Shown here: positions 44,815 to 59,051 of the stretch, in pieces
How positions within the stretch are numbered: position 1 is the stretch's first letter
Layout of the letters: each line of letters starts with the position of its first letter
Origin: Verrucomicrobiota bacterium
GTDB lineage: Bacteria > Verrucomicrobiota > Verrucomicrobiia > Opitutales > Opitutaceae
Length of the DNA: 64,000 bases
NCBI GenBank assembly: GCA_016871595.1
Contig: VHCY01000001.1
Span: 6,870 to 70,869 of the forward strand
Direction: 5' to 3'
Translations under genes and position numbers: made by a program
The notes under the pieces: generated by a model
What the model was told of the DNA's origin: nothing
The model's input: the letters and a program-made list of their open reading frames with translations, nothing else
Database searches by the model: none

Positions 44815-45411
44815 ATGAGTCCGGCCTTTGAACGCCTGCAGCAGCAGCTGAAGCAGTTGCCCGGCTTGGGCTATCGGTCGGCCGAGCGCATCGCGCTGCA
44901 CCTTCTGGTGGAGAAGCCCGCGCGCCTGCCGGAGCTGGTGGCGGCGCTGGAAGCGGCCGCGGCCGCGGTACGCCGGTGCGAGCGGTGCGGCAACGTGGCC
45001 GAGGGCCCCGCCTGCGCGATCTGCGCGGATGAGCGCCGCGACGCCGGCGTGGTCTGCGTGGTGGAACACGTGCCCGACCTGGTGGCGATCGAGCGCAGCG
45101 GGGCTTTCCGGGGCCGTTACCACGTGCTGCACGGCAAGCTTTCGCCCATTCAGGGGGTGGGCCCGGAACAGCTGCACCTCGCGCCGTTGCTGGAGCGGGT
45201 GCGTTCGGGGGAGGTCACGGAGCTCATCTTGGCGCTGCCGAATGACGTCGAGGGCGAGGCGACCTGCCATTACCTGACCGAACACCTGCCGGCCGACCGG
45301 GAGGTGCGGACCTCGCGGATCGGCTTTGGCCTGCCGAGCGGGGGAGGGGTGCTTTATGCGGATGCGGTGACCCTGCGGAGCGCCCTGGAGGGGCGGAAGG
45401 GCTATCGGTAA
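44815..45411 (+). CDS. recR: Recombination mediator RecR
   Basis: LPGLGYRSAER HhH, CERC...CAIC zinc finger, YHVLHG, EGEAT Toprim. Confidence 0.97.
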   Translation: MSPAFERLQQQLKQLPGLGYRSAERIALHLLVEKPARLPELVAALEAAAAAVRRCERCGNVAEGPACAICADERRDAGVVCVVEHVPDLVAIERSGAFRGRYHVLHGKLSPIQGVGPEQLHLAPLLERVRSGEVTELILALPNDVEGEATCHYLTEHLPADREVRTSRIGFGLPSGGGVLYADAVTLRSALEGRKGYR

Positions 45412-45476: not shown

Positions 45477-45551
45477 GCGGGCGTAGTATATCGGCTATTA
45501 TGTGGGCTTCCCAAGCCTGAGAGGCGGGTTCGACTCCCGCCGCCCGCACCA
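45477..45551 (+). tRNA. tRNA-Gly (anticodon CCC), CCA encoded, A73 discriminator
   Basis: Acceptor GCGGGCG/CGCCCGC, anticodon arm TGGGC-TTCCCAA-GCCTG, T arm GCGGG-TTCGACT-CCCGC, ends ACCA. Confidence 0.95.
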
Positions 45552-45593: not shown

Positions 45594-45806
45594 ATGAAGA
45601 AGCTCCTTTCCCTCCTCTTTGTGTCCGCCTTCGCCACGGGTCTCGCCTTCGCGGGCGCGGCCGAGAGCAAGCCCGGCAAGTGCTGCGCCGCCGCCGCCAA
45701 GGACGGCAAGGCCTGCGCCCACAAGTGCTGCGTCGACGCCGCCAAGGATGGCAAGAACTGCACCAAGTGCGGTGGCGCCGGCGACATCGCCAAGGCCAAG
45801 AAGTAA
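45594..45806 (+). CDS. Small secreted cysteine-rich protein (70 aa)
   Basis: MKK-hydrophobic-AFA signal peptide, two KCCxxAAKDGKxC repeats, GC3-rich codons, terminator downstream. Confidence 0.8.
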   Translation: MKKLLSLLFVSAFATGLAFAGAAESKPGKCCAAAAKDGKACAHKCCVDAAKDGKNCTKCGGAGDIAKAKK

Positions 45807-57300: not shown

Positions 57301-57753
57301 TCACTCGCGCCGGCGCGAGTCCAGGAGCAAGGTGACCGGGCCGGCGTTGACCGAACTGACCGCCATCTCCGCGCCAAAGCGGCCCGTCGCCACCGGCCGG
57401 CCCAGAGCTTCGGCCGCCAAAGCGCAGAAGCGATCGTAGAGCGGCCGCGCGACCTCCGGGCGGGCCGCGGGATGGAAGGAGGGCCGGGTGCCCTTGCGCA
57501 AACTCGCCAACAGCGTGAACTGGCTCACCACCAGCAGCCCGCCGCCGGTGTCGATCAGGCTCCGGTCCAGCCTTCCCGCCTCGTCCGCGAACACCCGCAA
57601 GGCCAGGATCCGCCCGACCAGCCAGCTTGCATCCTCCTCGTTATCCTCGGCCGCCACGCCCAGGAGGATCAGCAGGCCGGGACCGATCGCACCGGTCTCC
57701 TCGCCGTCCACGGTGACGCGCGCCGCGGAGACGCGTTGCAGCACGGCGCGCAC
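57301..57753 (-). CDS. dtd: D-aminoacyl-tRNA deacylase (DTD1)
   Basis: MRAVLQRV, LRVF.D, VSQFTL, GRFGAEM, NAGPVT (Gly-cisPro). Confidence 0.96.
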   Translation of the reverse strand: MRAVLQRVSAARVTVDGEETGAIGPGLLILLGVAAEDNEEDASWLVGRILALRVFADEAGRLDRSLIDTGGGLLVVSQFTLLASLRKGTRPSFHPAARPEVARPLYDRFCALAAEALGRPVATGRFGAEMAVSSVNAGPVTLLLDSRRRE

Positions 57754-57763
57754 GGGACGGCCC

Positions 57764-58951
57764 TCAGATCATCGGGTGGTGCGGCTCGGTCTCCGCCTCG
57801 TAATTGATCCCGGGCAAGCCGAAGCCGAACAGCTTCAGGAACTCGGAGCGGTAGCCGGCGATGTCCGTCTCCTGAGCCAGATTCTCCGTGGTGACCCGCG
57901 GCCAGATCTCGCGCACGGCCCGCTGGATCTCCGGCCGCATCTCCCAGTCGTCGACGCGCACGCGCCCGGCCTCGTCAAAGCGCGGCGGACGCTCTCCGAA
58001 AAGCTCGGTGGCGAACAGCCGCTGGATCTGCTCGATGCAGCCCTCGTGGCTGCCGGCGGCCTTCATCACCTTGTAAAGGATGGCGATGTACAGGGGCACC
58101 ACCGGGATCGCCGAGCTGGCCTGCGTCACGAGGGCCTTGTTCACGGAAACAAAGGCCCGGCCGCCGCCGTTCAGCTTCAGGAGGGAATCGATGTTGCGGG
58201 CGGCGCGCTCGAGGTCGTTCTTCGCCAGCCCGATGGTCCCGTTCTTGTAGACCGCCCACGTCACCTCCGGCCCGATGTAGGAGTAGGCCACCGACTGCGC
58301 CCCGGGGGCGAGCAGGCCGCCCTCCGCGAGGGCGTTCATCCAGAGTTCCCAATCCTCGCCGCCCATCACCGCCACCGTATCGGCGATCTCCGCCTCCGTC
58401 GCCGGCTCGATGGTCACGTCGCTCACGATGCCCTTGTCCGTGTCGACCGTCCGATTGGTGTAGGGTTGGCCGACCGGCTTGAGGACCGAGCGGTGGACGA
58501 CCCCGGTGCGGGGGTGGGTGCGGCGCGGGGAGGCGAGGGAATAGACCACGAGATCCACCTGGCCGAGCTCGGCGCGGACCGTCGCGAGGGCCTGGCGCTT
58601 GATGTCGTCCGAAAAGGCGTCGCCGTTCAGGTTGCAGGCCTTGAGTCCGGCCGCGCGGGCGGCGCGCGTGAAGGCGAGGGTGTTGTACCAGCCGGGGGTG
58701 GCGGGGCGCCCTTCCTCGGAGGGTCGTTCGAAGAACACGCCCACGGTGGCGGCACCGGAGCCGAAGGCCGCGGTGATGCGCGAGGCGAGGCCATAGCCGG
58801 TGGAGGCCCCGATCACGAGCACCCGCTTGGGGCCGCGGGCCACGGGGCCCTTGGCCTTCACGTGGTCGATCCACTCCTGAACGTGCGCCGCGCAGCCCTC
58901 GGGATGGGCGGTGACGCAGACGAAGCCGCGAACCTTGGGTCGGATGATCAT
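57764..58951 (-). CDS. fabV: Enoyl-ACP reductase FabV
   Basis: MIIRPKVRGF..TAHP.GC, GASTGYGLASR, YSLASPRR, VMGGEDW, YIAILYKVMK, HEGCIEQ. Confidence 0.96.
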   Translation of the reverse strand: MIIRPKVRGFVCVTAHPEGCAAHVQEWIDHVKAKGPVARGPKRVLVIGASTGYGLASRITAAFGSGAATVGVFFERPSEEGRPATPGWYNTLAFTRAARAAGLKACNLNGDAFSDDIKRQALATVRAELGQVDLVVYSLASPRRTHPRTGVVHRSVLKPVGQPYTNRTVDTDKGIVSDVTIEPATEAEIADTVAVMGGEDWELWMNALAEGGLLAPGAQSVAYSYIGPEVTWAVYKNGTIGLAKNDLERAARNIDSLLKLNGGGRAFVSVNKALVTQASSAIPVVPLYIAILYKVMKAAGSHEGCIEQIQRLFATELFGERPPRFDEAGRVRVDDWEMRPEIQRAVREIWPRVTTENLAQETDIAGYRSEFLKLFGFGLPGINYEAETEPHHPMI

Positions 58952-59051
58952 TGAGCCGGCATCCTCGGCGGGGGCCTTCGCGCGAGGCAAGTGGGTTTTG
59001 CCGGGCGGAATTTGGTTGGCGGCCACGGTGCGGGGGCGTTCGCTGCCGCTT

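Follow-up and report, generated by a model that had tools for sequence, protein, structure and literature searches.

Glycine tRNAs with discriminator base A73 beside an intact D-aminoacyl-tRNA deacylase in the bacterial order Opitutales

The tRNA-Gly(CCC) and dtd genes of the window

The window, that is the whole stretch of 64,000 nt of DNA that was analysed, contains a single tRNA gene according to ARAGORN, a tRNA-Gly(CCC) on the forward strand (45477..45551, +), on which Rfam concurs with 55.3 bits. The gene encodes its own CCA end and displays the features of a glycine tRNA, namely C35 and C36 in the anticodon, the acceptor pairs G1-C72, C2-G71 and G3-C70 and a cloverleaf; the anticodon CCC (45510..45512, +) decodes GGG, which represents about 25% of the glycine codons of the source genome. 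What is missing is the U73 of bacterial-type tRNA-Gly: the discriminator base is A73 (45548, +), as originally predicted and as the sequence shows, and the second tRNA-Gly of the same genome, a UCC isoacceptor on contig C364, is likewise A73. The anticodon arm (45503..45519, +) does carry the two adjacent G-U pairs noticed earlier, U27.G43 and G28.U42; common to most relatives, they occur together in 27 of 30 CCC loci, the window locus being counted among the 30, and were therefore rejected as a sign of decay. U15 (45491) stands opposite G48 (45523, the last position of the variable loop), an unusual tertiary pair common to many CCC tRNAs of the family. Minimum-energy folding of the tRNA did not reproduce the D-arm of the cloverleaf and is uninformative, and a promoter scan found none on the tRNA strand.

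An assembly error at the discriminator position was considered and rejected because the identical 75-base gene is present in four other genomes, A73 occurs in all 30 CCC loci compared (one of which is the window itself), and the contigs from four of four public DNA runs, one possibly being the source sample, list no letter other than A at 45548, so that no T appears there. Chance is rejected as well, since the published tally for bacteria counts 239 A73 among 232,109 tRNA-Gly (Table 1 of PMC6097841; the papers identified here by PMC numbers are drawn on for the portions of their text that were available).

Upstream of the tRNA gene lies recR (44815..45411, +), mentioned for context only. Directly 3' of the tRNA there is an open reading frame of 70 aa (45594-45806, +), rich in Cys, Lys and Ala and with a hydrophobic N-terminus, which has no NCBIfam match and at which the contigs of relatives in four metatranscriptome assemblies show the greatest depth of the region. 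Pieces from relatives (~90-95% identity) cover both the tRNA and fabV-dtd in four metatranscriptome assemblies, as contigs that cannot show transcription or its level.

The presence of an intact dtd gene, also part of the original prediction, is confirmed: D-aminoacyl-tRNA deacylase (DTD1), of 150 aa, is encoded on the reverse strand (57301..57753, -) directly downstream of fabV, after a gap of 10 bases, and the two genes (57301-58954, -) probably form one operon. The frame is open throughout, contains both the SQFTL and NAGPVT motifs and scores 163 bits with TIGR00256 against a cut-off of 101.5. The product has the sequence characters of DTD1 (TIGR00256 / PF02580), including R7, the equivalents of E. 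coli F125 and A102 and, by alignment, the Gly-cisPro motif at Gly138-Pro139 (57337..57342, -); the roles of these residues are taken from the available text of PMC3845328 and PMC5802732. A candidate specificity residue, His94, is encoded at 57472..57474 (-).

Distribution of A73 and the glycine codons involved

In a draw of 261 genomes from the phylum, a whole-tRNA pattern with A73 was found in 52 of 52 Opitutales and in none of the 209 other Verrucomicrobiota, while the mirror pattern with U73 was found in all 209 non-Opitutales genomes; these patterns miss tRNA-Gly genes with altered acceptor pairs. Hence, the exception to the bacterial U73 rule proposed for this DTD-bearing genome is real and extends to the whole order, and in this draw A73 is confined to Opitutales rather than common in the phylum. 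In particular, a hand tally of the 52 Opitutales genomes gave A73 in 34 of 35 CCC, 44 of 52 UCC and 0 of 48 GCC genes, the GCC gene not being found in four of these genomes. A73 is thus an order-wide trait of Opitutales, located on CCC and most UCC tRNAs and sparing GCC, and the bacterial DTD code, in which all tRNA-Gly are protected by a pyrimidine at position 73, does not hold here. Members of the source genus have identical acceptor stems in GCC and CCC, N73 being the one difference, and UCC toggles between A73 and U73 among those whose genes are otherwise the same, as would be expected near neutrality; in family f3, A73 is found on UCC only (two genomes). Such a mixed set, with UCC changed and GCC retained, corresponds to the transitional state known from jakobid mitochondria, with the GCC gene unassembled in the source genome. 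Some GCC genes have altered identity pairs (U2-A71 in G075, G176 and G134; A3-U70 in G209 and G137). In one genome (G230:C4:152027-152245), a UCC gene (A73) and a CCC gene (U73) stand in tandem and differ little in their bodies, which suggests that this CCC tRNA was recruited from a UCC duplicate.

The source genome (G000) is 3.6 Mb in size and 89.7% complete, and no tRNA-Gly(GCC) was found in its assembly. Its glycine codons, counted in a mechanical selection of 1,044 long ORFs, are 62% GGC, 25% GGG, 8% GGT and 5% GGA, and nine genes of the window show similar shares. By the wobble rules, a GCC anticodon is unable to read GGG or GGA, so the two A73 tRNAs deliver about 30% of the glycine. As the sole readers of both codons, these tRNAs are translational, and the earlier suggestion of a glycine isoacceptor used outside translation is unsupported.

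A true Gly-GCC gene with A73 occurs in 26 of 301 Opitutales genomes, a count from which 25 other matching genomes were dropped (Leu, Ser or non-tRNA matches). DTD was undetected in 24 of the 26; as 23 of the 26 are smaller than 1.5 Mb and belong to four families, the link between A73 on GCC and loss of DTD amounts to few events and is confounded with genome reduction and kinship. Loss of DTD is also insufficient for this change, since many DTD-less genomes keep U73 on GCC. Among the DTD-bearing genomes examined, GCC has U73 in all but two. The genomes G349 and G375 (family f70, 3.1 Mb) have an intact DTD and A73 on both tRNA-Gly found in each (GCC and UCC), in fragmented assemblies and with DTDs that do not pair on the tree.

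Beyond this phylum sample, a GTDB-wide scan for A73, whose results are examples rather than frequencies, gave at least 121 loci: 42 archaeal, 45 from named Patescibacteria, 5 unnamed, 16 of Opitutales type, 8 from alphaproteobacteria of Enterousia type and 5 others. Fifty genomes among the matches listed were examined for DTD: none of 8 alphaproteobacteria, none of 21 Patescibacteria and none of 3 reduced Puniceicoccales gave a match, and it was found in 12 of 13 other genomes of Opitutales type and in 2 of 5 others. The Flavobacteriaceae and Acidobacteriota matches resemble those of archaea or Patescibacteria and are possibly misbinned. In Patescibacteria only 20 of 201 genomes have DTD, and a weak control in matched genomes, with the centre genome excluded, gave A73 in 0 of 17 DTD-positive versus 3 of 38 DTD-negative ones (Fisher p ~0.3). 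A73 tRNA-Gly are frequent in the records of Saccharibacteria and Paceibacteria, with all three isoacceptors in G345, and most other Patescibacteria drawn have U73. Furthermore, the Enterousia-type alphaproteobacteria (~1 Mb) bear A73 on GCC or UCC, with an alpha2 GlyRS in the two tested, and are relevant to the argument on the mitochondrial switch that is discussed below.

The GlyRS and DTD of Opitutales

The source genome contains a match to TIGR00389 and none to PF02091, which identifies its GlyRS as alpha2; an alpha2beta2 enzyme was not found in it and scored above the cut-off in only 2 of 261 genomes of the phylum. The native enzyme is represented by a fragment at a contig end (C277), which matches the alpha2 GlyRS of three close relatives at 99-100% identity. 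A full-length alpha2 GlyRS on contig C49 (15592-16965) shares only ~45% identity with the enzyme of the family, and its contig diverges in codon make-up, GC and GC3 both being lower; the contig is probably a foreign one in the source bin. All 30 genomes of the phylum tested, 15 of which lie outside Opitutales, have alpha2 GlyRS. The alpha2 GlyRS of Thermus thermophilus charges A73 and U73 alike (available text of PMC3990555), from which we infer that the Opitutales enzyme would accept both bases. The original prediction of an alpha2-type GlyRS accepting A73 therefore stands as regards the type and fails as regards the cause: non-Opitutales share alpha2 yet keep U73, and this enzyme was rejected as a sufficient cause; it is a background that allows A73 but did not trigger it. 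A change specific to the GlyRS of Opitutales was likewise rejected, as no alignment column reached 90% conservation in the order (17 sequences) while staying at or below 15% in the remainder (15 sequences), in a comparison that took in the foreign C49 protein. A fused alpha-beta GlyRS of ~1,025 aa replaces alpha2 in one family of the phylum (G108:C1, G276:C10).

DTD was found by profile search in 43 of 52 Opitutales and 223 of 261 phylum genomes, and R7, SQFT, R90, F126 and GP are invariant in 61 of 61 Opitutales DTDs. The window DTD aligns best with bacterial structures and lacks the eukaryote-type loop (N89, K90, D92, H94): it has T89, R90 and S92, and H94 alone matches. Asn or His occupies position 94 in 70 of 72 DTDs from Opitutales and in 0 of 59 genome-linked outgroup DTDs; elsewhere the residue is His in human and Plasmodium, Ser in E. 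coli and Haemophilus and Glu in Aquifex, and Asn or His also occurs in 12 of 150 unplaced representative DTDs. In Plasmodium DTD, Lys107, three residues past this position, contacts the base of A76 (available text of PMC3845328), which places the loop with residue 94 near the tRNA end. That residue 94 might contact N73 is a guess, and none of the literature examined names an N73-sensing residue of DTD. Asn/His94 may equally be a neutral marker of the clade: its match with A73 counts as one event, since both arose on one branch, and it is not required for A73, since one Pirellulales genome combines A73 on CCC with a DTD that has Ser94.

The phylogeny of DTD appears consistent with vertical inheritance in Opitutales. 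On a quick IQ-TREE, the 72 Opitutales DTDs need one change and adjoin 8 DTDs of the same class (SH-aLRT 83); one Pirellulales row lies inside the order group, insertions relative to the window protein were dropped and no eukaryotic sequence was included. An earlier FastTree with 150 representatives disagreed, as the Opitutales DTDs did not form one group there. Horizontal replacement of DTD is accordingly not supported. The DTD matches are split in two pieces in three genomes (G310:C7, G321:C50 and G263), and in G310 and G321 a single open frame of ~200 aa contains both pieces, which implies that there is an insertion around residue 70.

A proposed weakened reading of N73 and its alternatives

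The combination found in Opitutales resembles several known systems and coincides with none of them. Archaeal and eukaryotic cytosolic tRNA-Gly also have A73 with an alpha2 GlyRS; unlike these, the tRNA body in Opitutales is bacterial and GCC keeps U73. To our knowledge, archaea have no DTD1, and the eukaryotic DTD1 has an inverted discriminator preference. With the E. coli DTD1 code (Kuncha et al. 2018, PMC6097841, in the text available) Opitutales share a canonical bacterial-motif DTD1, U73 on GCC and the standard glycine acceptor pairs, but CCC and most UCC carry A73, the base that in E. coli sensitises the tRNA about 100-fold. Thermus thermophilus, for which the available text of PMC3990555 describes a DTD-bearing bacterium with an alpha2 GlyRS charging both bases, has U73 in its tRNA-Gly genes, whereas in Opitutales A73 is genomic. 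The jakobid mitochondria (Gogoi et al. 2022, PMC8754408, in the text available) show a mix in one compartment, with A73 on UCC, U73 or A73 on GCC and a bacterial alpha2-type GlyRS; Opitutales, in contrast, are free-living, have a DTD of their own bacterial lineage, neither archaeal tRNAs nor eukaryote-type DTD and a set that involves the CCC isoacceptor; their set has an independent origin and is not a member of the jakobid system.

An altered DTD preference, one of the explanations originally proposed, is plausible from the sequences. In the form that we favour, to which we give an even chance, the DTD of Opitutales would read N73 weakly, its preference flattened and not inverted, so that A73 would be almost neutral on CCC and UCC and a residual cost would hold GCC at U73. 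The alpha2 GlyRS would charge tRNA-Gly with either base, and a change in DTD, for which Asn/His94 beside the active-site loop is the candidate, would have occurred on the stem branch of Opitutales. Misediting of Gly-tRNA-Gly(A73) would thereby be reduced and the two minor isoacceptors could drift to A73; GCC, the isoacceptor in heaviest use, would remain U73 because of the residual cost for as long as DTD is present. More of the discrimination of Gly-tRNA-Ala would in that case fall to G3.U70. An unchanged DTD should be costly, considering that the E. coli enzyme is ~100-fold more active in vitro on Gly-tRNA-Gly with the U73A change and that protection by EF-Tu is only ~10-fold (both from the available text of PMC6097841), with 30% of the glycine codons at stake. 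The genomic pattern in Opitutales suggests a purine preference below this ~100-fold ratio.

The main alternative, possible if somewhat unlikely, is that the enzyme is an ordinary purine-preferring DTD that is scarce, the loss being absorbed by EF-Tu and by recharging through GlyRS, with only GCC, which serves ~70% of the glycine codons, held at U73. The retention of the bacterial R90 and S92, the U73 of GCC in all but two DTD-bearing genomes, the sporadic CCC-only A73 beside a DTD without Asn/His94 in Pirellulales and the in vitro nature of the E. coli measurement all agree with this explanation; it leaves unexplained both the absence of A73 from 209 other genomes of the phylum with the same GlyRS type and the two genomes with DTD in which only A73 tRNA-Gly were found, and GGG plus GGA, at 30% of glycine codons, are no small load. 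A complete inversion of the DTD code, as in the eukaryotic DTD1, which prefers pyrimidine 73, would have pushed both CCC and UCC towards A73, along the lines suggested for mitochondria, and the isoacceptor pattern shared with jakobid mitochondria (UCC A73 and GCC mixed, in the available text of PMC8754408) and the agreement of His/Asn94 with the eukaryotic column are in its favour. This explanation is very improbable, given that GCC retains U73 in the presence of DTD and has A73 mainly in genomes in which DTD is undetected, the opposite of what it predicts, that many genomes with DTD have U73 on UCC and that the eukaryotic K90 and D92 are absent.

Two further explanations set DTD aside. A73 could have been selected for an unrelated reason, such as escape from TacT-type toxins that read U73 or improved maturation through RNase P or the CCA enzyme, with a DTD that is simply tolerant. 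The identity of TacT on Gly-tRNA-Gly consists of U73 and G71 (available text of PMC9976931) and the near-fixation of A73 on CCC (34 of 35) exceeds what drift alone might give; still, a cell that retains U73 on GCC stays sensitive to the toxin and UCC toggles, and we regard such selection as improbable. Finally, the CCC tRNA could be labile, silent or non-ribosomal, which would make its sensitivity to DTD irrelevant. Some families dispense with CCC tRNAs, and the anticodon stem is weak and U15 faces G48, but this is scarcely credible when UCC is also A73, GGA and GGG have to be decoded by one or other of the two, and the gene is conserved across Opitutales.

Within the reading that we favour, that of a weakened DTD response to N73, a more specific proposal can be put forward tentatively: the DTD of Opitutales might be a natural intermediate between the bacterial and the eukaryotic codes, with changes near residue 94, the tRNA-Gly would have moved in the order UCC, CCC, GCC, and the family of G349 and G375 would have completed the move while keeping DTD. 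If so, free-living bacteria would have repeated independently the switch that has been proposed as essential for the origin of mitochondria, and their DTD would give a pointer to the residue responsible for reading N73.

A lineage-wide A73 beside DTD is real and apparently undescribed: in the mostly open-access literature no description of an A73 exception in Opitutales/Verrucomicrobiota or in Patescibacteria was found, although supplements may list the 239 cases. In the parts of these papers that were available, the 2018 study calls U73 invariant in bacterial tRNA-Gly despite its 239 A73 (PMC6097841), a 2024 review considers protection from DTD by U73 a necessity in all bacteria (PMC10954443) and the U-to-A switch is used as a step in the origin of mitochondria (PMC8754408). 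The literature examined also gave no answer as to how DTD senses N73. Opitutales, a free-living order, combine A73 and U73 tRNA-Gly of identical acceptor stem with an intact DTD, which is a ready-made controlled experiment; they supply a natural enzyme, and a candidate residue within it, with which to ask by what means DTD senses N73 and in what way this preference can shift.
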